Part shown: positions 4,041 to 40,340 of the stretch, in pieces | How the letters are laid out: each line of letters begins with the position of its first letter | How positions within the stretch are numbered: position 1 is the first letter of the stretch | Source of the DNA: Legionellales bacterium | GTDB taxonomy: Bacteria; Pseudomonadota; Gammaproteobacteria; JAGOUN01 | Reading direction: 5' to 3' | Length of the DNA: 64,000 nt | NCBI GenBank assembly: GCA_027486005.1 | Contig: JAIXPZ010000060.1 | Span: forward strand, 3,088 to 67,087 | Program-made: the position numbers and the translations under genes | Notes under the pieces: generated by a model | The model's input: the letters and a program-made list of their open reading frames with translations, nothing else | Database searches by the model: none | What the model was told of the DNA's origin: nothing

Positions 4041-6083
4041 TTAGCGTTTTATTTTCCCTAACCATGTGATTTTTAAAAACATCCATAAACACAGCAAGAA
4101 AGTCGCAAGTCCACCGAGAAGATTAGCGATTGGCACAAATCCCGGCCCTACTAAACTCCAAGCATCTGAACTTTTTTCAATCGCAAAGGGAATTGCTAGT
4201 AACACCCCCACTAAAGAAGAGCCTGCAACTAATCCGCACGCCAAGGTTAGTCCACGATGTTTATTCACCGCGATTTTCTTATCAAAAATCGCTTTACGAT
4301 TGGCGCGTAATCGTAGCTTTTTAAAACGACGATATACCAGATATTGCACCAAGCCTCCAAACAGCACTGGAATAGACGCGCTAAATGGTAAGTAAATCCC
4401 CAATCCTACCGCTAAAACTGGCAAACGCATGTTATACGGCTTTAAACATTCATCGATGAAAATTGCCACAAAAGCAACACATCCACCAGCGATGATCATG
4501 GCCCACGGAAGTTGATGCGTAAACGCTCCTTTCGCTATGGCAGCCATTAACCCCGCTTGAGGTGCAGGCAACATTTGCTTCACGTCCATACCTGGATGCG
4601 GGAAAACCCCCGCCATACCATAAGCGTGATAAAGCAGACTCAATACCAAAGGTATAATCGTCGCAGAAACGCACACGCCAATAATCAGCATGACTTGCTG
4701 TTTCCAAGGAGTTGCCCCAACCATTTGACCTACTTTTAAATCTTGAATGGTTTCATTTGCAATCACGATCGCCGCACTAATGATGGCCGTAATGAAAACC
4801 GCATATCCTGCAGAAGTCAATTCAGCCTGAGTCACCTGACCAACAAACTTAATATCAATTCCAAAAATGGCTAATAAAAGCAACGCCAACAGCAACAATA
4901 CGGATACCGTTAGACCTGAACCAGGACTGTTAGTCGAGCCAATTAAACCTGCAAAATAAGCGGAAATAGAAGAAAAGGCAAAACCGACTACTAAAATATA
5001 GATCAAGCTAAATATAGCCACGAACCAACGAATCCAAGGAGAAACCGGAATTAAAGTCGGATTCAACAAGGAATAAGCGAAAACAAACGTTGGAATCGCT
5101 AATAAAGCCAATAACCACATAACCGTCGTCAAGGGAATATCACGCTCCGTGCGCGGTAACTCAATCGCACCATGTAAACGTGCAGAGCGAATTGAGTTCC
5201 AAGAGGTTTTTAAGCTTTGTACCACAGGCTTCATCAAACAGATAAGCGTCCAAATACCGCCCACTAACATAGTGCCCACACCAATATATCGGATATGATG
5301 ACTCCAAATTGTTTGCGCTGCCGCAATCGGATCAGCAATATCAGGCACACCATAAAAATAGGTCAAAATCGGTACGCCTGCAATCCAGCCGACAATAACG
5401 CCAACAAACATACTTAAACCGACATTAATCCCAACGATATATCCTGCCGCTATCAAAGCGGGGGAAAATCCAAGCCCGAGACCAAACAACGTTCCTTTCA
5501 CACGCCACCAGTAATCCGCACTATCAGAAAATATGCGAAACCCAGTTTGAAATAGGGTGATCACAGCGCCAATAATTCCGCCCTTTACCAACATACTTAA
5601 ATCAGCCGAGTCTTGAGTAGCGCTCGCTTTCAACACATTTCCGATGGCAACACCCTCTGGAAAACGCAATTCAGGGCTATTAATTAACGCACGACGAATC
5701 GGAATAGAATACAACACGCCTAATAGCCCACCGATTAACCCCACCATGACTGTTTCAAAGTAGTTAAAATCAGTCCAAAATCCCAACACCAACATCGCGG
5801 GCACCACAAAAGACAAACCTGCGGTTAATCCCTCGCCTGCTGATGCCGCTGTTTGTACCATAGTACTTTCCAAGACATTATGCGTTTTAAACATCCGCAA
5901 AACACCCAATGAAATCACCGCAGCGGGAATAGAGGCTGATACCGTTGCACCAACTTTTAGCCCTAGAAAAGCATTTGCTGCGGCTAACACTAAAGTCAAA
6001 ATAATGGCTAAAATTACAGACTTAAAGGTAATTTCTGGTAATATTTTAGACGCCGGGATCAAAGATTCAGTCAGCTTAGACAT
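4041..6083 (-). CDS. OPT family oligopeptide transporter
   Basis: 680 aa, ~16 TM segments; length and composition are typical of bacterial OPT/YgjI-like proteins. Confidence 0.8.
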   Translation of the reverse strand: MSKLTESLIPASKILPEITFKSVILAIILTLVLAAANAFLGLKVGATVSASIPAAVISLGVLRMFKTHNVLESTMVQTAASAGEGLTAGLSFVVPAMLVLGFWTDFNYFETVMVGLIGGLLGVLYSIPIRRALINSPELRFPEGVAIGNVLKASATQDSADLSMLVKGGIIGAVITLFQTGFRIFSDSADYWWRVKGTLFGLGLGFSPALIAAGYIVGINVGLSMFVGVIVGWIAGVPILTYFYGVPDIADPIAAAQTIWSHHIRYIGVGTMLVGGIWTLICLMKPVVQSLKTSWNSIRSARLHGAIELPRTERDIPLTTVMWLLALLAIPTFVFAYSLLNPTLIPVSPWIRWFVAIFSLIYILVVGFAFSSISAYFAGLIGSTNSPGSGLTVSVLLLLALLLLAIFGIDIKFVGQVTQAELTSAGYAVFITAIISAAIVIANETIQDLKVGQMVGATPWKQQVMLIIGVCVSATIIPLVLSLLYHAYGMAGVFPHPGMDVKQMLPAPQAGLMAAIAKGAFTHQLPWAMIIAGGCVAFVAIFIDECLKPYNMRLPVLAVGLGIYLPFSASIPVLFGGLVQYLVYRRFKKLRLRANRKAIFDKKIAVNKHRGLTLACGLVAGSSLVGVLLAIPFAIEKSSDAWSLVGPGFVPIANLLGGLATFLLCLWMFLKITWLGKIKR

Positions 6084-7615: not shown

Positions 7616-9783
7616 TGATGAACACTTTAACTCACCACCTCAACACAGCACAACAACACGCAGTTTGTGCGCCACTCGGTAATTTATTAGTACTTGCAGG
7701 AGCAGGCAGCGGTAAAACACGGGTATTGGTGCATCGGATTGCCTGGTTGATGCAACAAGAACATGCATCTCCGTTCAGTATTCTTGCCGTTACTTTTACC
7801 AACAAAGCCGCGAATGAAATGCGCACTCGCGTTGAGTCTTTATTGGGAAGTTCAGTAAACGCCATGTGGCTAGGTACTTTTCATGGTTTAGCACATCGTT
7901 TATTGCGCACACACTGGAAAGATGCCGGCTTATCTGAAAATTTTCAGATTTTGGATAGTAGCGACCAACAACGTTTAGTTCGCCGTGTCATGCGTGATTT
8001 AAATATTGATGAAGAACGATTCCCTTACAAGCAAGCACAATGGTTTATTAACAAAAAGAAAGATGAAGGATTTCGTGCACAGCATTTATCCGCACACCAC
8101 CAACCACAAGAAGAAATGTTTATTCGCATTTATGCTGCTTATGAAGAGGCCTGTGCACAAAGTGGATTAGTCGATTTTGCAGAATTATTATTACGCAGCT
8201 ATGAGCTGTGGCGAGACCACGATGAATTACGCCAGCATTATCGCAATCGATTTCGTCATATTCTGGTTGATGAATTTCAAGATATTAATGGCGTTCAATA
8301 TGCATGGCTGCGTTTATTAGCTGGCGAGAATAATTTTTTTACGGTGGTGGGTGATGATGATCAATTAATTTATAGTTGGCGCGGCGCATGTGCGGATAAT
8401 TTGCATAAATTTAAAAAAGATTTTCCACATGTTTGCACTATTACATTGGAACAAAATTATCGTTCTACGAGTACAATACTGAGCGCAGCCAATGCCCTTA
8501 TTGACTTCAATCGGGATCGTTTCGGAAAAGAATTATGGACGGATGGCGCAATTGGCGATCCTATTCGTATTTATGCTGCTTATAATGAAATCGATGAAGC
8601 GAGATTTATTGCAAGCGAATGCCTGAGTTGGATAGACCAAGGAAACACGTTCAATGATGTCGCTGTGTTATATCGCTCCAACGCGCAATCACGAGTACTA
8701 GAAGAAGCATTGCTACAACAAGGTATTGCGTATCGTATTTTTGGTGGTTTACGATTTTTTGAACGCGCTGAAATTAAAGATGCGCTTGCCTATTTGCGTT
8801 TAGTGAATAATCGCTTTGACGATACTTCGTATGAACGCATTGTCAATTTGCCGCCACGCGGCATTGGCAATAAATCATTAGAAACGGTGCGTCAACATGC
8901 GCGAGAAAAGAGCATTTCTCTCTGGCAAGCAACACACGACGTCATTACACATGCATTGCTGCCGGCACGCGCACTCACTGCTCTTGAAAGTTTTCTTGCA
9001 ATGATTGACGATCTTGACAACCAAACTAAGAATCTCGCTTTACTGGAATCAACAGAAGCCATTGTTAATGCCTCTGGGCTAATTGGGCATTTTCAAAAAG
9101 AAAAGGGTGAAACTGGTCGCACGCGCATTGATAATTTACGCGAATTAATTTCCGCTGCTGGTGAGTTTAACTTCGACTCTGTATCTCCAGAAGAAAAAGA
9201 AACACTCACTCCCATTACCGCATTTCTTAGTCATGCCACCCTTGAAGCAGGTGAACATCAAGCCGATGCCATGTCAAATTGCGTTAAACTCATGACCATT
9301 CATGCCGCAAAAGGCTTAGAATTCCCATTTGTAATTTTATGTGGCATGGAAGAAGGATTGTTCCCACACCAAATGAGTAAGGGCGACCCTAAAGGCATAG
9401 AAGAAGAACGCAGATTATGCTACGTAGGCATGACGCGGGCAATGCGTCAATTATTGCTCAGCTACGCGGAATCACGTCGCGTCTATGGCCAAACCCATAT
9501 GGCCTCGCCGTCGCGTTTTATTCGTGAGATTCCCCAGCAGTATTTACAAGAAATTCGCATGCAAAGTAAAATTAGCCGGCCAGCCAGCCTAGCGGAATCA
9601 TCGTCCTTTTTAAATCAAAAAGAGACGAGCTTTAGATTAGGGCAATACGTAAGACATACCAGCTTTGGCGATGGGGTTATTCTCGATATAGAACCCAATG
9701 GCGAAAAAACACGAGTGCAAATAAGATTCAAAACCGGGACTAAGTGGCTTATTGCTAGTCTAGCCAAATTGGAGTCAATATAA
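7615..9783 (+). CDS. uvrD: DNA helicase II (UvrD)
   Basis: 722 aa with a near-identical N-terminal region to E. coli UvrD (NLLVLAGAGSGKTRVLVHRIAWLM, TFTNKAANEMR, DEFQDIN). Confidence 0.9.
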   Translation: MMNTLTHHLNTAQQHAVCAPLGNLLVLAGAGSGKTRVLVHRIAWLMQQEHASPFSILAVTFTNKAANEMRTRVESLLGSSVNAMWLGTFHGLAHRLLRTHWKDAGLSENFQILDSSDQQRLVRRVMRDLNIDEERFPYKQAQWFINKKKDEGFRAQHLSAHHQPQEEMFIRIYAAYEEACAQSGLVDFAELLLRSYELWRDHDELRQHYRNRFRHILVDEFQDINGVQYAWLRLLAGENNFFTVVGDDDQLIYSWRGACADNLHKFKKDFPHVCTITLEQNYRSTSTILSAANALIDFNRDRFGKELWTDGAIGDPIRIYAAYNEIDEARFIASECLSWIDQGNTFNDVAVLYRSNAQSRVLEEALLQQGIAYRIFGGLRFFERAEIKDALAYLRLVNNRFDDTSYERIVNLPPRGIGNKSLETVRQHAREKSISLWQATHDVITHALLPARALTALESFLAMIDDLDNQTKNLALLESTEAIVNASGLIGHFQKEKGETGRTRIDNLRELISAAGEFNFDSVSPEEKETLTPITAFLSHATLEAGEHQADAMSNCVKLMTIHAAKGLEFPFVILCGMEEGLFPHQMSKGDPKGIEEERRLCYVGMTRAMRQLLLSYAESRRVYGQTHMASPSRFIREIPQQYLQEIRMQSKISRPASLAESSSFLNQKETSFRLGQYVRHTSFGDGVILDIEPNGEKTRVQIRFKTGTKWLIASLAKLESI

Positions 9784-9863
9784 TGTCAATTTACCGCAAA
9801 GAATTGCACTTTTAGCAAAGTCTTACTATAGTTAGACCAAGCTGACAGGGAAGATGCAAAATT

Positions 9864-10409
9864 ATGATACGCTTAAAGTTGAACGGATTAGTGATGCTTG
9901 GCTTGATGGTAATGGGCCTTAATAGCCATGCCGGTGGTTTATCAAGCATTACGGATGGCGCAAATAATTACCAAATTATTTTTCTGAATAAAACAGTGAC
10001 CTTTGTTTCTACTGACTGGTCTATGCTCACCAATTACTACAGTCAAAACTCAACTTTTCCTCAAGCAAACGCGTATTCGATTGACACTTCTTTTCTCCCT
10101 GGAGTCAGTTCAATAACCAATTCTGCGTCAGGAACCCTGGAGGTCAGGTTTGGTACAACAGCACCAGGGCCTATTGCAAATAATGGATTTGCAATAGCAC
10201 CAACCCGAGTGTCACTTAGAGGCAACACGTTCTATGTCTACCAATTGCCTCAATGCTACACCAATATTACTGACTCAATGACTAACCAGCAAGCCCCTGC
10301 CCCCGGAACACTGATTAGTTTATTTAGCAACTCCGCCCTTGGAACCAATTGCATGTATGCCCCTGATCCGTACGCCACTGCCATTAACCAAGTCAACGGT
10401 GTCGTTTAA
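9864..10409 (+). CDS. Secreted protein of unknown function (Sec signal peptide, S/T/N-rich, 2 Cys)
   Basis: Signal peptide MIRLKLNGLVMLGLMVMGLNSHA; no recognisable domain. It is followed by a second secreted protein 1 nt downstream. Confidence 0.5.
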   Translation: MIRLKLNGLVMLGLMVMGLNSHAGGLSSITDGANNYQIIFLNKTVTFVSTDWSMLTNYYSQNSTFPQANAYSIDTSFLPGVSSITNSASGTLEVRFGTTAPGPIANNGFAIAPTRVSLRGNTFYVYQLPQCYTNITDSMTNQQAPAPGTLISLFSNSALGTNCMYAPDPYATAINQVNGVV

Positions 10410-11063: not shown

Positions 11064-12281
11064 TCAGTGTATTCCTGGGTAGAAAAAAAGCGTTTCAGCT
11101 ACATAGACCAGGAAGAAAAACAACGCTGTATTAAACAAATACAAACCTAATCGAACAAACTCTATCAATAACAATAAACGTTTTTCTAAAATCATCTGAC
11201 TAACGCCATAAATACGCTTAAACGATGCTGATAAGTTATTTGACAGCGCGCCCAAAGTAATCATCTGCACCTCTGCAGCACTAAAAATATGAAAATGCTT
11301 CAAGGTGTTAGAAAAAACTTCTCCTCGAATAATCGCAGCTGACATTGCTTGTACACGCCGTTTAAAAAATAAATTACCAATCACCGCGACACTATATAAC
11401 GCGCATTTTTGAGCGCTTGCCCCTCCTTTCAATAACACACTATAAAGCAAAGATAGACGTTCACGCTCAATCGCCAACACCACGCCGCTAACAACAGGGA
11501 GGTAACATAAAACCGCATCATAAATAAGCCTAGCTTTTTTATAAAAGCGAATAAGTAATTTTAAACTAATCAGTAAAAAAAATATCACTACTACTGTTCT
11601 GAATAAATGAACGGTAAATAATGCGGTTAACATATCGAAAAATTCGATTAATTGTGGCGTTGGGTTACGAAAAACATAAAGCGCATAATAAAAATCTTTT
11701 AAATAATGTAAACGTAGAAAAAATAGGCCACTGAATAACACCACCGCAATCGATAACTGAGGCATAGCCACAAGAAATATTTTCTGTGAAAATGAAACTC
11801 TTTTGGTAGATTGATCGCAATATTGCAAAATAGCAGAAAGCTCTTCTCGAGTATGTGCAAAAGAAATTAATTGCAATGTGGACGAGGAAAACAGCCATTC
11901 ATGTTTCTGCAATGCTTCAGAAAAAGAAAACCCTTTTGAAAGCTTCTCTATTATATCCCGAAGCACATGCGCCAACCTCGGGTTGCTTAAATGCGCGGCA
12001 ATAATAAACAAAGCATTTTTTATAGGTATGCCTATATCCAACATCCCTGCTAATTGATAATAAAACATGGAAAGATCAAATTTTCGAACTGGAAAGAATC
12101 GACTACTAAATTGCTTTAACACAACACACATCACTTGAAGAAAAGCCATTTTTTCAATAGACAACACCAAAATACCAGCAGACTGCAACCGACTTCTTAA
12201 TGTTAACTCAGATTCAGCATTGTATCGACCCTGCACTAAATGCTCTGATGCGTTTTTTCCCTTGAAGTTATACCAAGTCAT
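11064..12281 (-). CDS. Type IV pilus / T2SS inner-membrane platform protein (GspF/PilC/MshG family)
   Basis: 405 aa with two repeated GspF-type domains and 3 TM segments. It lies downstream of the GspE-like ATPase. Confidence 0.8.
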   Translation of the reverse strand: MTWYNFKGKNASEHLVQGRYNAESELTLRSRLQSAGILVLSIEKMAFLQVMCVVLKQFSSRFFPVRKFDLSMFYYQLAGMLDIGIPIKNALFIIAAHLSNPRLAHVLRDIIEKLSKGFSFSEALQKHEWLFSSSTLQLISFAHTREELSAILQYCDQSTKRVSFSQKIFLVAMPQLSIAVVLFSGLFFLRLHYLKDFYYALYVFRNPTPQLIEFFDMLTALFTVHLFRTVVVIFFLLISLKLLIRFYKKARLIYDAVLCYLPVVSGVVLAIERERLSLLYSVLLKGGASAQKCALYSVAVIGNLFFKRRVQAMSAAIIRGEVFSNTLKHFHIFSAAEVQMITLGALSNNLSASFKRIYGVSQMILEKRLLLLIEFVRLGLYLFNTALFFFLVYVAETLFFYPGIH

Positions 12282-25052: not shown

Positions 25053-26897
25053 ATGCAGACAGTTGAGAACAATTCTCTGGAGCGATTATTATCCCCGCCT
25101 TCTGAACTCTCAAACAACAGCAAGAAACAACATTTAATTGTTGAACTTGAGCGCGCGAAAGAACTCCTTGAACAATTAAGTGGCAATCGTGATGAAAACA
25201 TTGCATCTCGAGAGAATAATTACATTGCTTGTGTCGGTTATTTTTTGTCTGCCTCAACTTCTCTATGGCTTGGCGGAGCTGCCTATTGTTTTTTTCAATA
25301 TAATTCCTCTAGCCACGGCATTTTTGATCTTGGAGTCCCCATAATCGCTGCAAAAATTTTTAGCGCATTTTTCACTGCAGGCGATTGGGTTAACAATAGC
25401 TTTGGCATTAGCCCAACAAATGACTCAGATAAATTAGCACTTTCTCATGTGGAGAGCGAACCAAGCCATATATTAGCAAAATTACGTTTGATTTCTAAAT
25501 ATATTGTAAACAACCCTGTAAACTTGGCGTTAATTGACATTCCTTTTTTTATTGCCTACTTCACTGGATCTTCGGCAAGTTTTTCTAGCATATTACCTTA
25601 TTTGTTACAGGCAAGTGGCCACCCCAAGTTTGGCACTTTGCCGTATTATAGTGTGATTGCCTTTGACTGTATTATCACGATTGCGCCCGGTTTAGTGTAT
25701 TATTATGCGTTCAATTCACGCCCCCTCGAAAAAACACAAACAGCATGGCAAGCGTTTAGAAGCAAACGCTGGGACGAATGCGACATCAATGTTTATCGAA
25801 TAGTTGAAGCACTTTGTGATAGCGCAGTTGTGATTTTTTATCGCTCAATATGGCTTGCTGGAATTTCGACAATATTTTTCGAAGCTTTAGAAATACCCAT
25901 TACGCCATCTCAAAAATTCTTTGCGACAATGGTTGTATTGCTTTGTGCGATGATCAATGTCACTCTGACGCGATGCGTTAACACCGCCGCTCCTTATTTT
26001 GACTATGATTTTGCCACTCTTTCAACGCAAGAAAAGAAAAATGCTCTAAACGACCTATCTTATAATGAACTTTATTGGAACTTAAATATTGTTTCAGGAT
26101 TAACGACTTCAGCGGGCATTGCCTTAATGACTTACTCGTCTATTTCAAAAAATAAAAATATTGCTTTACCTTTCGCTGTTGTATTGGGTTTATGTAAACT
26201 CTTTATTTCAATCATGGCACAACGTGACTTGGCCTCCTGTCAAAAAGCTTTACATAAAGATAGTAGTCACTCAAGCTCTCAAGTGCTAGCAGGAGATCGC
26301 AGGGAGATAGCAAAAAATGGTTTTGCCGCACTGGCCAATACCTTTAAAGAAGATGCGTGGATAGGGTGGTTTATTACCATTAGCACTTTGCTTGGTCGAG
26401 GAGCAAAACTGTCAGGTTTTGAGCACTTCACTGTATCTGTGTCAACTCTTGCTGAGATTGAATTATCATTTTTTGCGATGATTGCTCTGCTTCTTATTGT
26501 AGTGATAGCGAATGCACGCAATGAATTTAGAACCTACCGCCATATCATGAGCGAAATTATTTCTCAAAAAATTGCAGAGGCTTATGTCCAACATCATGCA
26601 GCGCCCGTTGATAGTGTGAATATACCTTTATTAGCTGACATCGAGTCCGCCGACAGCGAGTCCGCCGACAGCGAGTTCAACAGTGTGCAGACACCTTTAT
26701 CAGTCGGCAAGAAGTCGACCGACAGTGAGTGCGACGAAAGATTAGCTCCTAGTCGACCAGCTCAAACTGAGCCATTTAATTCAATTTGTGTTTTGTTTCC
26801 ATGGAAACTAACACTTTATTGCACAGGCATGATCGATACCACTCCTAACGAATTGGCGCGAGCAGTCGATGCAAGAATCCATGAGTTAACAACATGA
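25053..26897 (+). CDS. Polytopic membrane protein of unknown function with an acidic C-terminal tandem repeat
   Basis: 614 aa with ~10 hydrophobic segments, preceded by an AT-rich region. It contains a SADSE-encoding 15-nt repeat (26643..26672). No recognisable domain. Confidence 0.45.
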   Translation: MQTVENNSLERLLSPPSELSNNSKKQHLIVELERAKELLEQLSGNRDENIASRENNYIACVGYFLSASTSLWLGGAAYCFFQYNSSSHGIFDLGVPIIAAKIFSAFFTAGDWVNNSFGISPTNDSDKLALSHVESEPSHILAKLRLISKYIVNNPVNLALIDIPFFIAYFTGSSASFSSILPYLLQASGHPKFGTLPYYSVIAFDCIITIAPGLVYYYAFNSRPLEKTQTAWQAFRSKRWDECDINVYRIVEALCDSAVVIFYRSIWLAGISTIFFEALEIPITPSQKFFATMVVLLCAMINVTLTRCVNTAAPYFDYDFATLSTQEKKNALNDLSYNELYWNLNIVSGLTTSAGIALMTYSSISKNKNIALPFAVVLGLCKLFISIMAQRDLASCQKALHKDSSHSSSQVLAGDRREIAKNGFAALANTFKEDAWIGWFITISTLLGRGAKLSGFEHFTVSVSTLAEIELSFFAMIALLLIVVIANARNEFRTYRHIMSEIISQKIAEAYVQHHAAPVDSVNIPLLADIESADSESADSEFNSVQTPLSVGKKSTDSECDERLAPSRPAQTEPFNSICVLFPWKLTLYCTGMIDTTPNELARAVDARIHELTT

Positions 26898-26905
26898 TGG
26901 CAACT

Positions 26906-29152
26906 TTAAACTGCCGTCATGCTTTCAACCCGCTGAAATCCTTTCGGTAATTTGTTGCCTCTGCGGCCACGCTCGCCATGATAATGTTCGAGATCTTTTG
27001 GCTTTAACACTAATTTTCTTTTTCCAGAAAATAACTCTAATGATTGACCCGCATTAATAATTTGCATATCCGTCACAAACTCTTCACGTGCTTCAGCGCG
27101 TTTCGGATTAATACTAATCATTTTATTACCTTTGCCTTTGGAAAGCTCTGGCAATTCTTTTACAGGGAAAATTAACATACGTCCTTCATTCGTGATTAAC
27201 GCAATTAATGCAGAATCAAGATTCGACACAAGTTGCGGAACAAGTACTTGCGCAGCAAGTGGTAATTTTAATAACACTTTTCCAGCTTTGTTGCGTGAAT
27301 AAAGTTCTTGAAGTTTAACCATAAATCCATAACCGGCATCCGACGCAATAATATAATGTTGATTATCTGCGCCCATCATTGCTGCGATAAATGTCGCGCC
27401 GGCGGGTGGCGTAACATGCCCTGATAATGGCTCGCCTTGTCCACGCGCTGACGGCAATGTATTCGCCAGTAATGAATAGGCTCGCCCGGTACTATCTAAA
27501 AAAACCACTTGCTCTTGACTGCGCCCATAAACCGCAGATAAAAATGAATCACCCGATTTATAATTTAATACTTTGGGGTCAATTTCATGACCCTTGGCTT
27601 GGCGCACCCAGCCCATCTTCGATAAAATCACAGTCACCGGCTCTGAAGGCAACAAGTCAGTTTCTTTAATAATTTGCGCTTCTGCTCGCACAACTAATGC
27701 TGATTTTCGATTATCACCATATTTTTCTGCATCTTCTAACATTTCTTTTTTGATTAATGTCGTTAAACGCGCTTCTGATCCTAAGGTTTTCTCAAGCCCA
27801 TCACGCTCAGTCGCTAACTCATCTTGCTCGCCACGAATTTTCATTTCTTCAAGTTTTGCTAGATGACGTAATTTTAATTCTAAAATCGCTTCGGCTTGTA
27901 GATCTGATAAAGCAAAACGCTGGATTAAAATTGGCTTAGGCGTTTCTTCCTCACGAATAATTCGAATTACTTCGTCCAGATTAAGATACGCAATTAATAA
28001 TCCTTCTAACAAATGCAATTTTGCGAGCACTTTATCCAAGCGATATTGTAAACGTCGACGAACAGTGATTCTACGAAAAACCAACCACTCTTGAATAATT
28101 TCCAATAAATTTTTAACGCGTGGGCGGCCATCCAAACCAATCATATTTAAATTAATGCGGTAACTGCGCTCTAAATCGGTGGATGCAAATAAATGTGCCA
28201 TGACGCTATCAACATCAGTGCGATTTGATTTTGGAACAATCACCAAACGTGTTGGATTTTCATGATCTGATTCATCACGCAGATCTTCAATCATCGGTAA
28301 TTTTTTTGCGCGCATTTGTGCAGCAATTTGTTCTAATACTTTTGCGCCTGAAGTTTGATAGGGCAATGCAGTCACCACAATATCATTGTCTTCTCTAATA
28401 TAAGTTGCGCGCATTCTTAACGACCCACCACCTTTTCTATAAATTTCTGCAATTTCTGCGCGTGGCGTAATGATTTCTGCACGAGTGGGATAATCTGGCG
28501 CTGGGACATATTGCAAAACATCATCCAAAGTTGCTTTTGGTGTTTCTAAGACATGAACACACGCTGCAACTAACTCACGAATATTATGCGGTGGAATATC
28601 GGTTGCCATTCCCACGGCAATACCACTGCCACCATTTAATAAAATATTGGGCAATCGTGCCGGCAATTGCATCGGTTCATTCAATGTGCCATCAAAATTC
28701 GGCATCCAATCAGTGGTGCCTTGATCGAGTTCTTTTAATAACACGTCAGCATATTTAGAAAGCTTAGATTCCGTGTAACGCATCGCAGCAAAGGATTTTG
28801 GATCATCCGGCGAACCCCAGTTGCCTTGACCATCCACTAAAGGATGACGGTAGGAAAAATCCTGCGCCATCAGCACCATGGCTTCGTAACACGCACTGTC
28901 ACCATGCGGATGAAACTTACCCAAAACATCACCGACAGTACGCGCCGACTTTTTATGCTTAGCAATTGCACTCAATCCAAGCTCAGACATCGCATAAACA
29001 ATGCGTCGTTGCACAGGTTTTAGTCCATCGCCAATATGCGGCAACGCGCGATCTAAAATCACGTACATCGAGTAATCCAAATACGCTTTTTCGGTAAATT
29101 CATGTAAGGGTTGTTGTTCAACACCCTGAAGATTCATTAATGGTAAGGTCAT
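26906..29152 (-). CDS. parC: DNA topoisomerase IV subunit A
   Basis: 748 aa, collinear with E. coli ParC ([22 protein letters not shown]..., and the active-site region AAMRYTE). Confidence 0.93.
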
Positions 29153-29164
29153 TTTTTTCCTATT

Positions 29165-29551
29165 TTAAATCTTTTTTATAGGCCCAGGATACGCTGCAAC
29201 GAGCTTATCTTTGGTTAATAAAGTAATTCCTTCGACAGTTGCTTGTGAGATAAGTAATCGATCAAAAGGATCTTTATGTAATAATGGTAAACTATCAATC
29301 GAGACTACATGTTCACTCGTTATTCCCAACTCTTTATAACCTTCATCACATAATGCACGATGCAATACCCTTGCATCTACTTGAAAATTTTCACGCCCAA
29401 GACTGTTTTTGATTGCTATCTCCAAAAGACTCACAATACTGAAATAAATTTCATTGTCACTATCTTGAAGCAAGTCACAAACGGCACGAGACAAACGTTC
29501 TGGAGAATTCGCAACCCACAGTAACACATGTGTATCAAGCAAAAATCTCAT
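29165..29551 (-). CDS. vapC: VapC PIN-domain toxin
   Basis: 128 aa with LLDThVLLW and a C-terminal HKDPFDRLL motif. Paralog of 7232..7615. Confidence 0.85.
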   Translation of the reverse strand: MRFLLDTHVLLWVANSPERLSRAVCDLLQDSDNEIYFSIVSLLEIAIKNSLGRENFQVDARVLHRALCDEGYKELGITSEHVVSIDSLPLLHKDPFDRLLISQATVEGITLLTKDKLVAAYPGPIKKI

Positions 29552-29802
29552 TCTTCACCATGAAAAAGACGCTCAATCTCTCCCTGACTTATTGTATCAA
29601 AATCGTCAGGCACTTGCATTTGTCCTGCCATAAAACCAAGCTTACGCTTCTTTTTCTCAGGGGCTTCTAACCGCTCCACTTTAACCAAAGGTTTGCCGGC
29701 TTTTGCAATAATAAAAGGCTCACCCTTCACCGCCAAATCAATCAAGCGCGATAATTGTGTTTTTGCTTCATGAATATTAACCGTTTGCATAACGCGCCCC
29801 AC
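29548..29802 (-). CDS. Phd/YefM-type antitoxin
   Basis: 84 aa, overlaps vapC by 4 nt. Paralog of 6978..7235. Confidence 0.75.
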   Translation of the reverse strand: MGRVMQTVNIHEAKTQLSRLIDLAVKGEPFIIAKAGKPLVKVERLEAPEKKKRKLGFMAGQMQVPDDFDTISQGEIERLFHGEE

Positions 29803-29876
29803 ATATCAAACTAAGTTTATCAGACTTAGTTTACTTTATGGGCGCTAGAATTTCAATCCAACATATTCACTTCCTG

Positions 29877-31133
29877 TTATAAATTTAATACGGCATGTAC
29901 TAGAGGATCAACTATTTGATAGTAACCTTCTTCATTTTCATAAATATAATCCTTGTTTCTAAGTGCCGTCGCAGCTCTGGGTATGCTTCCAGGGACGATG
30001 GATAGGGCGTGACTAAACTCTTTAGAAAGCAACTCTTTTGTTTCTTTGTTTCGCGCAATAGCAAATAACAATTTTCTTTGGTTAACTGCCAATAAACTAA
30101 CCTCACCTTCTACGGACGTTCTGTTTTCCAATACGTAATTTTCCCATACGCTCAAAATTATCGTGTCTGATACGATCTCTTGAAAACTTAATAGGGTACA
30201 CAGTTTATTGACATAGTAAGGATGTCTTTGAGTAAGGCTGAATATGAGGTGAAGATCCTTATCGGATATAGAGGATCCCCATATTTCTTGAGAAACTGCT
30301 TGTATATATTTGATATAATGCTCGGGTTGAATACGTTTTAAGTAAATTGTGTGGCACAGTTTATAAAGCGGTCTTTTTCTATCTTGAAACATTTCTTTTA
30401 ACAAATAACGATTGCTACCTGAAAAAAGATAACAAACATGTTTGGATTCTTGCGCTGCATGACGAATAGCTGCCTCGATCCCATGATGACTTGTGGCTTC
30501 TGCAAGCGTTTGAAATTCATCCATGAATAGAACCAGTTTTTTTTGTTTCTTTACGGCAAGCTCTTCAAGCTTTTCCAGTGCTTCCGCAATAATATTAATG
30601 GGGCTTTTTTGTTTTTGTTCAAATTCAATTTCTATGCCAACCGTTTTAATGGCCGCGCGGATATGGAAGCTAGAAAAAAAATCTTTGGCTAGAGTTAAGA
30701 TTTTCTCTGGAGTATCTTCTATTTTACCTAATAGCCTGCCAATTCCATTAAGGATGGCGCTTGCGATGTCTTCTTCACTCAATTCTTTATAAAAATCGAT
30801 GTGTACATAGAGAAAATTGTTTTTATCTAAAACGTGAATGGCAAGACTTGTTTTTCCATAACGTCTCGGGGAAATCAAAAGCACAGGGCTGACGTTGTTG
30901 AGACAACGCAGTAGCTCTTCTTGTTCTTTTTCGCGATTACAGAAAGCCGCTCCAGCCGCTAGTTTTGTCGGAAAATAATCCACTTTTCTTGCTCCTATCT
31001 CTTGATTATACATATTGTATAATACAAAATGTATAACGTCAAATAGTCGAACAATCAGAGGCATATTATCATCTGGAACCTGCTGAAAAATCTCAAAAAT
31101 ATCGCTTTCACGATCACCTACTACGGTAATCAT
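29877..31133 (-). CDS. Arch_ATPase-family P-loop ATPase (ATPase_2 + DUF234-like C-terminal region)
   Basis: Walker A SPRRYGKTSL and Walker B LVLFMDEFQ. The characteristic RE(K/E)E...L lead-in (NREKEQEELLRCL) suggests the true start may be an internal Met (~31010). Confidence 0.55.
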   Translation of the reverse strand: MITVVGDRESDIFEIFQQVPDDNMPLIVRLFDVIHFVLYNMYNQEIGARKVDYFPTKLAAGAAFCNREKEQEELLRCLNNVSPVLLISPRRYGKTSLAIHVLDKNNFLYVHIDFYKELSEEDIASAILNGIGRLLGKIEDTPEKILTLAKDFFSSFHIRAAIKTVGIEIEFEQKQKSPINIIAEALEKLEELAVKKQKKLVLFMDEFQTLAEATSHHGIEAAIRHAAQESKHVCYLFSGSNRYLLKEMFQDRKRPLYKLCHTIYLKRIQPEHYIKYIQAVSQEIWGSSISDKDLHLIFSLTQRHPYYVNKLCTLLSFQEIVSDTIILSVWENYVLENRTSVEGEVSLLAVNQRKLLFAIARNKETKELLSKEFSHALSIVPGSIPRAATALRNKDYIYENEEGYYQIVDPLVHAVLNL

Positions 31134-31139
31134 TTGGAA

Positions 31140-31210
31140 ATTCCGATAAATTACTTTTTTTCTCTAACCATGTCTTTCAATAGCCAGCGCGTTTTTTGGC
31201 CAGCAACATT
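31140..31210 (-). repeat. Decayed ~70-nt duplicate of the parE 3' end (last 24 codons), a direct repeat of 32323..32393
   Basis: The minus-strand reading gives MLLAKKRAGY*KTWLEKKSNLSEF, compared with the authentic ParE C-terminus MLLAKKRAGDRKSWLEEKGNLSEL* at 32319..32393. That is ~80% nt identity over 70 nt. The two copies flank the Rpn gene. Confidence 0.65.
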
Positions 31211-31281
31211 GTCAGCGTTCAGAGCGTTATGAAATGTAAACATAGGCCGCAGTGGCGGGAGTCAAAAATCGATAAAATTTA

Positions 31282-32202
31282 TTATTCTTTCAAACATTCG
31301 ATTTCTTCTTCTGTCAACTCCGTCGCTTCAACAATAGTAGTAACAGAAAAATTCAACGTTAGCATTTTTCTTGCGATTTCTATTTTTCCCTCGACTTTAC
31401 CTTCCGCTTTACCTCTCGCCTCACCTTCCGCCAAACCTTCCGCTTTTCCTTCCGCTTTTCCTTCCGCTTTTCCCGCTTCTAACCCTTTAGTATACTTTTC
31501 CGACATCAGTGTTTTTTCTCGCCTTACTTGATCCCAATAACTTTCATAAAAAGCGAGTTCTGCTTGTGTGTAAGCGGATTCTTCCGCCAATTCCACCGCT
31601 TCGGCAATTTCAGGCACTTCGAGTAATTCGTGAGAGACCGTCTTGGTTTTTTCATCAATTTCACGTAAAAACCGTAACCATAACAGTCTTAATGTCTTTT
31701 CTTCCGCAGAATGAACAGGAAATTTGGGTAACTCAATAAAAATTAATTGAAGATGATCAATAATATCGCCATCCTGACCGCCTTTCTTAACCAGTTGATA
31801 ATCATGGTACCAATCCGGACTCAGCCTATCGTAAATTTCTGCAACTAACCCTAATCCATACACCGGTTGCAGTAACACATAGTCTTTTCCTTTATCCAGT
31901 TGCTTTACAAAAGCTTGGCTTGCACCAAAAAGTAAGCGCTGTTTAAAACTGTCTGTCCAATTCATCTGCATTTCGACGACAAAAGCCCTTCCCTTCGCAT
32001 CTTTGCACTTCGCATCAGCAATCGTACGATTGAATTCAGGAATTGCCGGCACTTGTTCGCTGGGCAAATACGTGAGTTCTACAATCGGACTATCTACGGG
32101 CAAAGGCAAAACAGCATTTAAAAAACTCATCAGCAAATGCGGATGATCGCCAAAAATCTTTTTAAATACCACATCGGCTTTCGGATCTAAATAGCGTGAC
32201 AT
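31282..32202 (-). CDS. Rpn-family recombination-promoting nuclease (YhgA-like, PD-(D/E)xK 'transposase_31')
   Basis: The N-terminus DVVFKKIFGDHP matches the E. coli RpnA N-terminus DAVFKTFMFTPE. The C-terminal tail has the family-typical short tandem peptide repeats (EGKAEGKAEGKAEG) followed by LTEEEIECL. Confidence 0.85.
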   Translation of the reverse strand: MSRYLDPKADVVFKKIFGDHPHLLMSFLNAVLPLPVDSPIVELTYLPSEQVPAIPEFNRTIADAKCKDAKGRAFVVEMQMNWTDSFKQRLLFGASQAFVKQLDKGKDYVLLQPVYGLGLVAEIYDRLSPDWYHDYQLVKKGGQDGDIIDHLQLIFIELPKFPVHSAEEKTLRLLWLRFLREIDEKTKTVSHELLEVPEIAEAVELAEESAYTQAELAFYESYWDQVRREKTLMSEKYTKGLEAGKAEGKAEGKAEGLAEGEARGKAEGKVEGKIEIARKMLTLNFSVTTIVEATELTEEEIECLKE

Positions 32203-32318
32203 AATCCTGGACCTCTTAATAATACACTAAACATTGTTTTTTATTATACAATACCACCTCACTCAAGCCTACTTCGTTTGCAGTTTGGGATATTATTAAT
32301 TTTCTGTTGAAGTACAGG

Positions 32319-34211
32319 CTATAATTCCGATAAATTACCTTTTTCTTCTAGCCAAGATTTTCTATCTCCAGCGCGTTTTTTAGCAAGTAACATATCCATA
32401 CGAGATTCTGTCAATATCGGATCATCCATGCTTAACCGCACTAAGCGCCGAGTATCGACCGCCATGGTGGTTTCACGTAATTGCAATGGATTCATTTCCC
32501 CTAATCCTTTGAAGCGTAACACATTTGGTTTGCCTTTTTTCTTTTCCGCTTCTAAGCGATCTAATATTCCTTGTTTCTCGGCCTCATCTAAGGCGTAATA
32601 CACTTCTTTGCCCATATCAATCCGATAAAGTGGTGGCATCGCAACAAACACATGACCGGCTAAAACTAACGCTCGAAAGTGTTTAACGAATAATGCACAA
32701 AGCAAAGCAGCGATATGCGCGCCGTCAGAATCTGCATCGGCAAGAATGCAGATTTTTCCATAACGCAATCCAGTGAGATCGGTTGAGTTTGGATCTACGC
32801 CAATAGCCACAGCGATATCGTGCACTTCTTGTGATGCTAATACTTGCGCCGAATCAACTTCCCAGGTATTTAAAATCTTTCCACGCAATGGCATCACTGC
32901 TTGAAATTCTTTTTCACGCGCTTGTTTTGCAGAACCACCTGCGGAATCTCCTTCCACCAAAAACAATTCTGTTTGCCTTGGATCTTGCGCAGAACAATCG
33001 GCCAACTTTCCAGGCAATGCGGGTCCTTGCGTGACTTTTTTACGCAATACTTTCATTGCGCTTTTTAAACGACGTTGCGCATTATTAATCGCTAATTCTG
33101 CAATTTTTTCACCCAAGGCGACATGCTGATTGAGCCATAAACTAAAAGAATCTTTAACCACGCCCGACACAAAACTCGCACATTCACGCGAAGATAAACG
33201 CTCTTTGGTTTGCCCTGCAAATTGTGGATCATGCAGTTTTACTGACAAAATATAACAACAGTTTTCCCACAAATCTTCTGCGGTTAATTTAACACCACGT
33301 GGCAACAAATTTCTAAATTCACAAAAATCGCGCAAAGCTTCTAATGATCCAGTACGCAAACCATTTACATGCGTTCCCCCTTGTGCGGTAGGAATCAAGT
33401 TGACATAACTTTCAGTTAACAATTCACCGCCTTCTGGCAACCATACAATGGCCCAATCCGCCATTTCTTTTCCGCCCTCGGCGTGACCTAAAATAGGCTC
33501 TACTGGCAAAAGCTCTAAACCATTCAGCGCATCTAATAAATAACCGGCCAAGCCCATTTCAAAATGCCATTCGACTTTTTCATTATGAATTTTGTCATCT
33601 AAAATGACTTTAAGCCCTGGGCATAATACAGCCTTGGCACGTAAAATATGTTTTAGCCTGCTGATAGAAAAGTTTGCAGAGTCGAAATATTTGGGCTCGG
33701 GCAAAAATCTGACACTCGTGCCAGTGTCACGCTTATTCACTTCTCCGATAACTTTTAATTCGGATTTTTTTGCGCCATGCTCAAAGCGCATGTGATAAAT
33801 TTTTCCATGCTGACGAATAGTCACTTCCAGCCATTGCGATAAGGCATTCACTACGGAAATGCCCACGCCGTGTAAACCGCCAGAAAATTTATAACTATCG
33901 TTGGAAAATTTTGCGCCCGCATGTAATCGCGTTAAAATTAATTCCACGCCCGTGACTTTTTCTTCTAAATGCACATCTGTTGGCATGCCACGACCATCAT
34001 CAGTGACCTCGACAGACCCGTCTTGATGAATAATCACCTCAATTTTCGTCGCGTGCCCTGCCAATGCTTCATCGACACTATTATCAATGGCTTCGCACGC
34101 CAAATGATTGGGGCGTGTGGTATCGGTGTACATCCCGGGACGTTTTTGTACCGGCTCTAATCCACTTAAAACCTCAATGGATTGAGCATTATAATTTTTT
34201 TCTGCCATCAC
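32319..34211 (-). CDS. parE: DNA topoisomerase IV subunit B
   Basis: 630 aa, collinear with E. coli ParE (IEVLSGLEPVQKRPGMYTDTTRPNHL...). Confidence 0.95.
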   Translation of the reverse strand: MMAEKNYNAQSIEVLSGLEPVQKRPGMYTDTTRPNHLACEAIDNSVDEALAGHATKIEVIIHQDGSVEVTDDGRGMPTDVHLEEKVTGVELILTRLHAGAKFSNDSYKFSGGLHGVGISVVNALSQWLEVTIRQHGKIYHMRFEHGAKKSELKVIGEVNKRDTGTSVRFLPEPKYFDSANFSISRLKHILRAKAVLCPGLKVILDDKIHNEKVEWHFEMGLAGYLLDALNGLELLPVEPILGHAEGGKEMADWAIVWLPEGGELLTESYVNLIPTAQGGTHVNGLRTGSLEALRDFCEFRNLLPRGVKLTAEDLWENCCYILSVKLHDPQFAGQTKERLSSRECASFVSGVVKDSFSLWLNQHVALGEKIAELAINNAQRRLKSAMKVLRKKVTQGPALPGKLADCSAQDPRQTELFLVEGDSAGGSAKQAREKEFQAVMPLRGKILNTWEVDSAQVLASQEVHDIAVAIGVDPNSTDLTGLRYGKICILADADSDGAHIAALLCALFVKHFRALVLAGHVFVAMPPLYRIDMGKEVYYALDEAEKQGILDRLEAEKKKGKPNVLRFKGLGEMNPLQLRETTMAVDTRRLVRLSMDDPILTESRMDMLLAKKRAGDRKSWLEEKGNLSEL

Positions 34212-38818: not shown

Positions 38819-40144
38819 TTAGGAAGTCATGCGCATATTCAACCATTGCTCCAATTCTTTCACAGTCACTCCAAGCCCAGCAATACGAGGCGGCGCGAGC
38901 TCAGCAAGATCTTCCATCAAATCTTCTTTAAAATTTATTTGATCTTTTTCTGGAATATGTTCTTTCGTTTGTAGATCCGCATATGCCTTAAGATTATCTC
39001 CAATTAATTGTTGTAGAATAATCTCACGGATCACCTTTCTACGCTGAGTTCGATAACGTACGCGAATTTCATCAAATCCTATTACCTCAAGCGTCACAGC
39101 ATATTCTTCACTGGTTTTCTGATACGAAGAAGCAAATATATTTGCAAGCGGGCCCACTTCATTCAATTCATAAATGGCAATCATTGCAGAAATATAATCT
39201 TCTTTATTAATGTAATTAAAAGAAAGCGGCACTAAATTGTTTTTAATCAAAGGAATATTTGCGCTTAATCGAGCGGTTCGCTTATTCACATCAGCAAAAG
39301 CTTGCAAATACGCAACATGCACTAAAAGAAAAAAACTCTGCTCATAAGGATCCGTAATTTTATTGGCTGTCTCACAGATATAATATAACTCATCCACCAG
39401 AGGATCACGCCCTTCTAAGGTCATATATGTCGTTCCATAAACACGCACTGCATGATCTCGAACATTTCCAACTGAAGATGATGGTTGAAGCAAGCCGTCG
39501 GATAATAAGTAATGCAGTGTACAAATTTCATCATAATTAATTTGAAGTCTATGAGCGTTATCTACAAGATGTCGAATAGCCTCTTTATGATTAAGAATCA
39601 TAACTTTTTCTTCATCTAACTTATCTGTATTCGCCACACCTTCTATAATTAATTTCTCAGTTTCTAGCAACGAATAAGTATTACCCTCTAAGCGTGATGA
39701 GTTATACGATAAATCAATTAACAAACGGTTATAAATTCTTCTCGCATAAGTTCCAGCCGGATCTTTTGAGGTGCTCTGCTCCGCGTGCATGGCACGCAAA
39801 AGAGCCCATGTGCCTTGAGGCAAATAACGATCAATATTGGGTCGATAAGCGTGCACCCATTCTATATTATAAGCAACAGGTTGACGTTGATATAACGGCT
39901 TTTTGATTTGCTCCAAAATACTATGACTCTGAGCAGTAAAACTTGATGGTTTTATTGATAGATAAGTAGTATTACGTTTTTCCCCTATTTTTATTATCAT
40001 TCCCGCACGAACGAACTGCTCAAGCCATCGCCTAACCGTACGCTCAGGAAAATCAGGCCCTAATTGTTGCAATAACACTGATAAACCTACAGGTGATAAT
40101 TGGTTGTTAAGCACCCTGAAAAGAGCATTTTTTTTTGAATTCAT
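38819..40144 (-). CDS. Fic/Doc-fold protein with an N-terminal winged-helix and a degenerate catalytic motif
   Basis: Contains the Fic-family SRLEGNTYS motif. The core-motif position reads QAFADVNKRTAR instead of HPFx(D/E)GNGRxxR, so the catalytic His is replaced by Gln. The N-terminal ~70 aa look like a winged helix-turn-helix (wHTH). I chose the start at the ATG at 40144 because the ORF-track 5' extension is built from the direct repeats. Confidence 0.5.
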   Translation of the reverse strand: MNSKKNALFRVLNNQLSPVGLSVLLQQLGPDFPERTVRRWLEQFVRAGMIIKIGEKRNTTYLSIKPSSFTAQSHSILEQIKKPLYQRQPVAYNIEWVHAYRPNIDRYLPQGTWALLRAMHAEQSTSKDPAGTYARRIYNRLLIDLSYNSSRLEGNTYSLLETEKLIIEGVANTDKLDEEKVMILNHKEAIRHLVDNAHRLQINYDEICTLHYLLSDGLLQPSSSVGNVRDHAVRVYGTTYMTLEGRDPLVDELYYICETANKITDPYEQSFFLLVHVAYLQAFADVNKRTARLSANIPLIKNNLVPLSFNYINKEDYISAMIAIYELNEVGPLANIFASSYQKTSEEYAVTLEVIGFDEIRVRYRTQRRKVIREIILQQLIGDNLKAYADLQTKEHIPEKDQINFKEDLMEDLAELAPPRIAGLGVTVKELEQWLNMRMTS

Positions 40145-40146
40145 GG

Positions 40147-40218
40147 ATACGGCCAATTTCCAATAAAGATACGGCCATTTTACCCCTGATACGGCCAAAT
40201 TTTCAATAGATACGGCCA
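40147..40218. promoter_or_regulatory. Four direct repeats of GATACGGCCA at 21/20/21-bp spacing (iteron/operator-like) immediately 5' of the Fic-like gene
   Basis: Exact 10-mers at 40147, 40168, 40188 and 40209. The spacing is about two helical turns and is not a multiple of 3 throughout, which argues for a DNA-level repeat rather than a protein-level one. Confidence 0.6.
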
Positions 40219-40340
40219 TTTTTAGGTTTTTTTAATCAATAAGTCGATTATGCTTAAAAAACTGTAAAGACTAAAGTCATACCATTCTAAGACTTCACCG
40301 ATTATACTCACGAGATAGACATTTTTTTGATATAATTTTT

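Follow-up and report, generated by a model that had tools for sequence, protein, structure and literature searches.

Genes of the Rpn family, which encode PD-(D/E)xK nucleases, behave as single-gene mobile units without transposon ends, and one group argues for their self-mobility, another against it. According to Zhong et al. (2023, PMC10400941), rpn genes are non-autonomous, move singly with ends that vary, and give rise to arrays through tandem duplication. The placement of Escherichia coli rpnC between panC and panD has been read as a possible sign of site preference or self-mobility (Kingston et al. 2017, PMC5350276). Here we describe an rpn gene in a 64,000-nt stretch of a Legionellales bacterium genome (GCA_027486005.1, contig JAIXPZ010000060.1, positions 3,088 to 67,087; hereafter, the window). 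The gene lies between parE and parC and is bracketed by the 3' end of parE and a decayed second copy of that end. A first-pass annotation of this DNA had seen the footprint of a site-specific insertion, an interpretation that is partly supported by our analysis. We instead favor, with about even confidence, a scar of non-site-specific, duplication-type illegitimate recombination in the variable parE-parC spacer.

The duplicated 3' end of parE

On the minus strand of the window, the gene order is parE, rpn, a 71-nt copy of the parE end, an open reading frame (ORF) listed at 29877-31133, phd-vapC and parC. The two direct repeats of about 70 nt that had been reported around rpn are real, although the first interval was off by one base and the natural repeat is longer. 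Positions 31139-31209 align with 32323-32393 over 71 nt without gaps, with 58 of the 71 positions matching (82% identity). The local alignment score of 77 is about 27 standard deviations higher than that of shuffled sequences (17.3 ± 2.2, maximum 27 in 500 shuffles), so the similarity is better than in shuffled controls, and blastn against the entire window recovered the repeat with E = 1e-13. The copy at 32323-32393 is the authentic parE end, as had been proposed, being the end of a 630-aa ORF (32319-34211, minus strand) whose product shares 98% amino acid identity with P0121 and is identical to P0248; an exact-sequence look-up of the window ParE gave no match, as gene callers place its start at another codon. 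Between the two copies there is solely the 306-aa rpn ORF (31282-32202, minus strand) with short flanks, again in agreement with the first description.

Read in the parE frame, the second copy (hereafter, the relic or R2) gives MLLAKKRAGY*KTWLEKKSNLSEF, and the living copy (R1) gives MLLAKKRAGDRKSWLEEKGNLSEL*. The window and the contig L081 from a metagenome-assembled genome (MAG; GCA_018061255.1) are collinear across speE, parE and rpn, with 96% identity over window positions 36099-31139. The L081 relic is 86 nt long and comprises the last 62 parE coding nucleotides, a lineage-specific tail, the stop codon and 12 nt of 3' untranslated region (UTR). Because it runs 15 bases further than the relic of the window, through the former stop codon and the 12 nt of UTR, the ancestral repeat must have been at least 86 nt. 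The window relic is truncated at 31139, precisely where the homology between the window and L081 stops. Downstream of its relic L081 continues with CTTGCTATAGAGG..., and the gene that follows there is an orphan, for which a homologue search yielded no parE empty site.

The two copies have evolved very differently. Between the window and L081, the divergence is 2.3% in parE and 1.2% in R1 (1 difference in 86 nt), versus 11.3% in R2 and 7.6-12.8% in intergenic stretches. The relic is therefore neutral, since it diverges at the intergenic rate, and the reported decay with a premature stop is borne out; for annotation, it should be recorded as a parE pseudo-fragment and not as a gene. The rpn gene itself shows 4.3% divergence, and because 30 of its 40 differences sit at third codon positions, it is under purifying selection.

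The sequences of the copies also reveal where the second one came from. Both carry a lineage-specific tail, TCGGAATTAT[A/C]GCCTATACTTCA, which rpn-less relatives lack. Of the 86 positions, 9 distinguish the reconstructed ancestral relic from R1. At positions 12, 36 and 43, and also at 27, the relic has the same base as the living parE alleles of L177, L172, L164 and L170, whereas R1 in both the window and L081 deviates. The relic is thus a fossil of older resident sequence, from which the living copy has drifted at silent sites. Given the shared tail and the older synonymous states of the relic, duplication of resident DNA suffices and no foreign att copy is needed. The same features argue against a gene end supplied from outside, such as the attP arm of an element, and the idea that an element restored the parE end from its own sequence is not upheld. 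A foreign parE allele was considered as the source of the synonymous-rich differences and was rejected, as L177 shows that the living copy holds several derived states. An imported 3' part of parE was likewise rejected, as the sliding-window divergence along parE is flat, with no step toward the 3' end.

Among 80 parE loci from GTDB species representatives, parC directly follows parE in many and rpn is present in none. In L172 (parE 89.6% nucleotide identity) parE is followed by an MFS-like gene, in L164-169 (83%) a 476-aa orphan lies between parE and parC, and in L170/171 (80%) an unrelated ATPase_2 gene follows; none of them has rpn or a relic. Relatives with a single parE end and without rpn, as called for in the first-pass annotation, do exist, including many gammaproteobacteria in which parE abuts parC. 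Empty sites that correspond to the repeat boundaries are not among them: homology between the parE of rpn-less relatives and that of the window stops within the repeat, at 32331-32332, since the final few residues of ParE are variable throughout (AEAQ, AESQT, SEL and others). At the locus L177 (parE 93.1% nucleotide identity), parE has the SEL tail and is followed by the same 5' flank and the rpn promoter, which places the insertion between the split of L172 and that of L177. The insertion is old and single, and is present in the lineages of the window, L081 and L177.

Together, rpn and the relic were found in 2 of 91 parE loci (the window and L081), which belong to the same lineage, and no other rpn locus contains parE. 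The repeat does record an event by which an rpn cassette was placed, or duplicated, at the parE 3' end, but one inherited event does not amount to targeting of parE, and none of about 85 other rpn genes adjoins parE. In L001, the closest GTDB genome, the region is rearranged and parE is not next to parC, so there is no empty site there; its parE seems frameshifted in a poly-A run near the 3' end (11820-11850), probably an assembly error.

The rpn unit and its paralogues

The window Rpn matches PF12784 (PDDEXK_2; 127.2 bits, cut-off 27.4, residues 7-223) and TIGR01784 (113.2 bits, cut-off 52.1, residues 8-302). PF04754 (Transposase_31, YhgA-like, the family of E. coli RpnA-E) was not among the Pfam hits at E ≤ 0.01, and the protein had been wrongly placed in that family. 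BLASTP against E. coli RpnC gave no meaningful similarity (E = 0.89). Residues D63, E77, Q79 and R89 are spaced similarly to D63, E82, Q84 and R94 of RpnA and may be their equivalents, as judged by inspection, the BLASTP comparison with RpnC finding nothing. More than 6,000 homologues of the window Rpn exist; an exact-sequence look-up gave no match, and neither did a sequence search of the PDB.

The C-terminal part has the layout described for RpnL/RpnS. The make-up or number of the tetrapeptide repeats varies between the window, L081 and L082/L083, which agrees with the hypervariable repeats reported for RpnL/RpnS (PMC10400941). An in-frame Met233 lies 11 residues ahead of the first tetrapeptide repeat (the repeats start at residue 244), and the published rule for the RpnS start is an internal start codon 8-20 residues before the repeats (PMC10400941). 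The window rpn has the variable C-terminal domain, the 12-nt repeats and an internal start within this range, and PF27070 (HTH_Rpn_C) is recorded for homologues that are 97% identical to its product. Judged by sequence, the gene would be of the RpnL/RpnS toxin-antitoxin/defence type, with the corresponding role predicted for this particular Rpn.

Copies of rpn with 93-95% nucleotide identity to that of the window sit in rfb-type loci (L082, L083 and L175). Their similarity to the window sets in about 79 nt before the ATG and stops in the repeat region, and the C-terminal domain differs. The shared upstream part is a promoter-like block from 32203 to about 32281 (blastn boundaries 32278-32279), which contains a TATAAT box and is conserved in paralogues. 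For the 29-mer of the 5' flank, no further copies were found. The genes are mosaic, with the first ~890 nt 93-95% identical between paralogues and the last ~110 nt, encoding the C-terminal helix-turn-helix (HTH) domain, strongly diverged (window 31282-31389 versus L082, L083 and L175); the break falls within the 12-nt repeat tract.

These paralogues speak against the minimal mobile unit that had been suggested, as they share only the ~79 nt of promoter and the gene, with no common ends, terminal inverted repeats or relic-like att. A repeat search of the window found no inverted repeats at the ends of the unit, and defined ends shared by all copies were not found among the 93-95% identical paralogues. 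A short target-site duplication of fixed length was not found either, the repeat in the window being at least 86 nt and other loci having none, or 30-200 nt of mixed causes. The features of homing endonucleases (an own recognition site, spread to empty sites, no target duplication) do not fit a single event with a long duplication. Scans for tRNA genes and Rfam elements detected none near the locus. The statement that no integrase or insertion sequence (IS) transposase is present holds for the integrase, as a Pfam scan of 16 neighboring ORFs found no integrase or recombinase domain, but not for the transposase, because an IS4-family remnant of about 28 codons abuts the relic.

A motif beside the relic, CTCTGAACRCTGAC, was considered as an element end and dropped, as it occurs solely in L081 and once in L089. 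Separately, a conserved motif, TAATTTTTTT..TTTTTTACAATTCGCCACA.ACA, was observed in the first ~40 nt past the rpn stop codon (L091, L110, L113, L146, L095, L139, L111 and others). It forms a hairpin that includes the stop codon in some loci, and the window has a looser version (ATCGATTTTTGACTCCCGCCACTGC) at 31245-31272.

Flanking repeats were profiled for rpn genes with enough flanking sequence (n = 62) and for control genes of similar length (n = 235), with a direct repeat score of at least 44 as the threshold. Upstream/downstream direct repeats were detected at 11 of the 62 rpn genes and at none of the controls (no control score above 30; p = 1.5e-8). This excess is mostly due to tandem rpn arrays, which account for the repeats at L089, L095, L096, L109 and L160; such arrays, with variable end points, have already been described (PMC10400941) and were present at 9 of 84 loci. 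The repeats are dispersed or inverted at L142 and L100 and are an IS30 end at L117. The single-gene cases are L162, with a terminator-like hairpin of 48 nt, and L123, with ~200 nt, where the contig ends; these two alone remain as possible parallels to the parE-rpn scar. No flanking direct repeat is visible at E. coli rpnC in K-12.

Two further contigs, L174 (540-1658) and L176 (496-1614), contain the parE-type rpn (98.4% identical to that of L081), followed by its 3' flank and by the initial 53 nt of the relic. Upstream of rpn they have the rfbB 3' end with an rfb-type promoter, and the two contigs end at the same base of the relic. This arrangement is most simply read as recombination between rpn paralogues; assembly chimeras are unlikely, given that no more than ~25 nt are shared at the switch and that the two samples agree with each other. 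In L082, two direct rpn copies (4776-5654 and 9317-10219) flank a 3.6-kb rfb segment (Bac_transf, rfbC, rfbD and rfbB-like genes). L083 has a single hybrid rpn (563-1465), with the upstream flank of the first copy in L082 and the downstream flank seen after the rpn of L175. This looks like an insertion/deletion polymorphism through rpn paralogues.

The hypervariable parE-parC spacer

The parE-parC spacer (window 29153-32318) is hypervariable, with unrelated cargo in each lineage. Besides rpn, ATPase_2 and phd-vapC in the window, we found the 476-aa orphan (L164, 9894-11770), another ATPase_2 gene (L170, 4446-6085), the MFS-like gene (L172, from 9894 onward) and phd-vapC in a Nevskia MAG (L064, 11885-12809). 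No parE relic lies beside any of the cargoes other than that of the window. Directly after parE, rpn-less relatives have short motifs (CGCGGAATC or GGCGAAATC) in 3-4 copies (L172, 9894-10060; L164, 9894-9960; L170, 4446-4600), which look like operator sites for the downstream cargo gene.

The sequence past 31139 matches only IS4-family transposases, which indicates that a later IS4-linked rearrangement cut the window relic and swapped the downstream cargo. The best tblastn hits of the remnant are all annotated IS4 transposases (best E = 8e-4), with no other database matches, and it aligns to positions 135-162 of the 405 in NF033590 (E = 0.0011). The 418-aa 'ATPase' ORF listed at 29877-31133 is this remnant fused in frame to a shorter ATPase_2 gene, which is not related to the ATPase found at the corresponding position of L170. 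Its true start probably lies near 30990 (GVG; GTG codon), after an AGGAG motif. A near-perfect palindrome of 15+15 nt (TTATACATATTGTAT/ATACAAAATGTATAA) at 31006-31036 overlaps a promoter-like site upstream of ATPase_2 and may be an operator. The coordinates of the features are given in Table 1.

Table 1 Features of the parE-parC region of the window, with positions in window coordinates.
Feature	Position	Strand	Basis
parE (topoisomerase IV subunit B), intact, 630 aa	32319..34211	-	ORF; Pfam HATPase_c, DNA_gyraseB, Toprim, DNA_gyraseB_C
R1, living repeat copy: 62 conserved parE coding nt, tail (SEL*), stop, 12 nt 3' UTR	32308..32393	-	relic match within window 32323-32393
5' flank of rpn: 26-29 locus-only nt (about 32279-32307) and promoter-like block	32203..32307	-	alignment with L081, L082a/b, L083
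rpn (Rpn-family PD-(D/E)xK nuclease, 306 aa), under purifying selection	31282..32202	-	PF12784, TIGR01784
Putative internal RpnS-like antitoxin ORF, Met233 to stop, 74 aa	31282..31506	-	inferred; weak ribosome-binding site
12-nt tandem repeats encoding (G-K/L-A-E)n tetrapeptides, inside rpn	31387..31479	-	repeat search
3' flank of rpn, noncoding	31210..31281	-	9.7% divergence from L081; same flank and relic after rpn in L174, L176
R2, relic of the parE 3' end, in-frame TGA, truncated at 31139	31139..31209	-	repeat search; L081 comparison
IS4-family transposase remnant, ~28 codons (ITVVGDRESDIFEIF...), DRE-motif region	about 31047-31130	-	tblastn, NF033590
ATPase_2/AAA gene, spacer cargo	29877..30990	-	Pfam ATPase_2 residues 64-311; weak PADLOC PDC-S27 match
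phd/yefM-vapC (PIN) toxin-antitoxin pair, spacer cargo	29165..29802	-	Pfam PhdYeFM_antitox, PIN
parC, conserved far edge of the variable spacer	26906..29152	-	ORF; directly follows parE in many relatives

Farther out, a 614-aa ORF without a Pfam match lies beside parC (25053-26897, plus strand) and a Fic-domain protein is encoded nearby (38819-40219, minus strand). Together with the nearest named relatives, which are Coxiellaceae MAGs, these two genes suggest an intracellular, Coxiellales-like host.

Origin of the scar and comparison with known systems

If illegitimate recombination made this scar, the 1,184-bp unit would be a single-gene Rpn cassette with its own promoter and short flanks, inserted in the hypervariable parE-parC spacer. 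One event in the ancestor of the window, L081 and L177 lineages would have left the cassette between two copies of at least 86 nt of resident sequence. This may have happened by a templated (primer/template-switch) insertion that re-copied the target, an outcome predicted by the primer-template-switch idea in PMC5350276; alternatively, 'parE end + rpn' may have been duplicated locally in tandem, after which the second rpn was lost. The upstream copy would have remained the working parE end, evolving at synonymous sites, and the downstream copy would have turned into a neutral fossil that gained a TGA and lost the TAG. The fossil in the window would later have been truncated by the IS4-linked rearrangement, by which the downstream cargo changed too.

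Several observations weigh against this explanation. A one-step duplicative insertion would be atypical, because published comparisons report no target-site duplications around rpn genes (PMC10400941). The history appears more tangled than a simple insertion, because two independent metagenome contigs (L174 and L176) join rpn and the relic to an rfbB flank. The positions at which R1 departs from the ancestral relic are clustered in the left half (8 versus 1, Fisher p = 0.03), a pattern that synonymous change in R1 explains only partly. For the unique 29-nt and 72-nt flanks of the rpn unit, no second copy, and hence no source, was found. The SEL-type parE tail was found in no genome that lacks rpn, so the exact pre-insertion site is unobserved, and a one-step insertion is indistinguishable from duplication plus deletion.

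Homology could have helped the cassette in, although we consider this unlikely: the 'parE end + rpn' of a close relative, as a circle from a tandem array or as a linear fragment, would have recombined via the parE 3' end, by a Campbell-type single crossover or with one homologous and one illegitimate end. A stretch of 86 nt is long enough for RecA-dependent recombination, and the part of ParE encoded by its first 62 nt is among the most conserved of the protein. Tandem rpn arrays able to release circles are common (9 of 84 loci), and the rpn paralogues of this clade do recombine (L082 versus L083; L174 and L176). Such an origin requires a donor that already had rpn beside parE, however, which pushes the question back one step, and because both copies share the rapidly evolving tail, donor and recipient would have to come from almost the same lineage. 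The richness of the differences in synonymous sites would suit a donor allele, but it is explained by the continued evolution of the living copy, and parE shows no divergence step. Quite unlikely, in our view, is a remnant of site-specific integration, in which an element, or an integrase-less satellite mobilized in trans and resembling a cis-mobilizable element (CIME), would have carried an attP mimicking the parE 3' end, the repeats being attL and attR and the integrase lost or never present. Foreign DNA does lie between direct repeats that comprise a conserved gene's 3' end, the spacer cargo differs in every lineage as in an integration hotspot, and this cargo is of the toxin-antitoxin/defence type. 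Yet there is no integrase between the repeats or among the neighbors scanned, none of the 89 other parE loci has a relic or att-like repeat with its cargo, and no independent genome reuses the att. The repeat or unit ends recur at no other rpn locus except derivatives of this one, and both copies share the resident variable tail, with ancestral resident states kept in the relic.

The least probable of the explanations, in our assessment, is self-mobilization, in which the Rpn nuclease would cut at or near the parE 3' end and drive the insertion of its own gene in a homing- or transposase-like manner, with a long target duplication. Self-mobilization with site preference has been proposed for rpnC between panC and panD (PMC5350276), and the window rpn is placed likewise, with a pair of co-oriented core genes around it. 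A few other single rpn genes have long flanking direct repeats that are specific to their locus (48 nt at L162, ~200 nt at L123); counting this lineage and the ambiguous, IS30-linked L117, there are four independent cases in 55, against 0 in 235 controls (p = 0.001). Nevertheless, most flanking repeats belong to tandem arrays, are dispersed or are linked to an IS, no such repeat flanks E. coli rpnC, and RpnA shows little or no sequence specificity (PMC5350276). At parE we see a single inherited event, with no other rpn at parE and no other parE with rpn, and the near-identical paralogues lack shared termini. No autonomous PD-(D/E)xK transposase is known, and rpn genes are reported to be non-autonomous and without target duplications (PMC10400941). 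A related idea, which we regard as very unlikely, is that Rpn nucleases provoke the duplicative insertion of their own gene: the repair of enzyme-made breaks through primer/template switching would paste in the rpn cassette and re-copy tens to hundreds of target bases. Such switching was suggested by Kingston et al. for RecA-independent recombination (PMC5350276). If this were true, the first natural sequence footprints of rpn movement would be those seen here and at L162 and L123 (the IS30-linked L117 being a less clear case), and the undefined rpn ends would be explained.

Whatever the exact route, the locus provides a clean, datable case in which a cassette lies between two essential genes, with a fossil target copy showing that resident DNA was duplicated. 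It fits neither cut-and-paste transposition nor an integrase reaction, supports illegitimate duplication-type recombination as one route of rpn movement, and gives concrete junctions. The locus is a well-preserved example of known rpn behavior, of modest value as a test case for how rpn genes move.

Among described systems, the window rpn resembles most closely the RpnL/RpnS genes (Zhong et al. 2023, PMC10400941), which include the TIGR01784/PF12784 branch. It has the N-terminal PD-(D/E)xK domain with a putative D...ExQ core, a small variable C-terminal domain, 12-nt/tetrapeptide repeats and an internal Met 11 residues before the repeats. As in that group, the gene was acquired alone and sits beside other toxin-antitoxin/defence genes, with variable ends, paralogues and arrays nearby and no transposase-type termini. 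For toxicity, RpnS expression and defence, the likeness is predicted from the protein sequence. Unlike those genes, for which the published survey reports no target duplications, the window rpn is bracketed by a duplication of at least 86 nt of the 3' end of an essential neighbor. E. coli rpnC (yadD) at panC-panD (Kingston et al. 2017, PMC5350276) is similar in lying between adjacent conserved core genes and in its presence or absence among relatives, whereas RpnC belongs to PF04754, rpnC of K-12 has no flanking repeat, and two independent insertions were inferred there versus one here.

In genomic islands and CIMEs, as at this locus, foreign DNA is flanked by direct repeats with a conserved gene's 3' end in them, and a displaced, decaying gene end lies on the far side. 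They differ in that here there is no recombinase among the scanned neighbors, the site does not recur, the unit is 1.2 kb and the repeat is resident, not element-derived. Insertions by template switching, of the type of microhomology-mediated break-induced replication (MMBIR) or fork stalling and template switching (FoSTeS), and tandem-duplication scars likewise show a re-copied target of arbitrary length, a position that is not reused and undefined ends; no donor locus or junction microhomologies were identified for the window locus, where a mechanism of this kind is putative.

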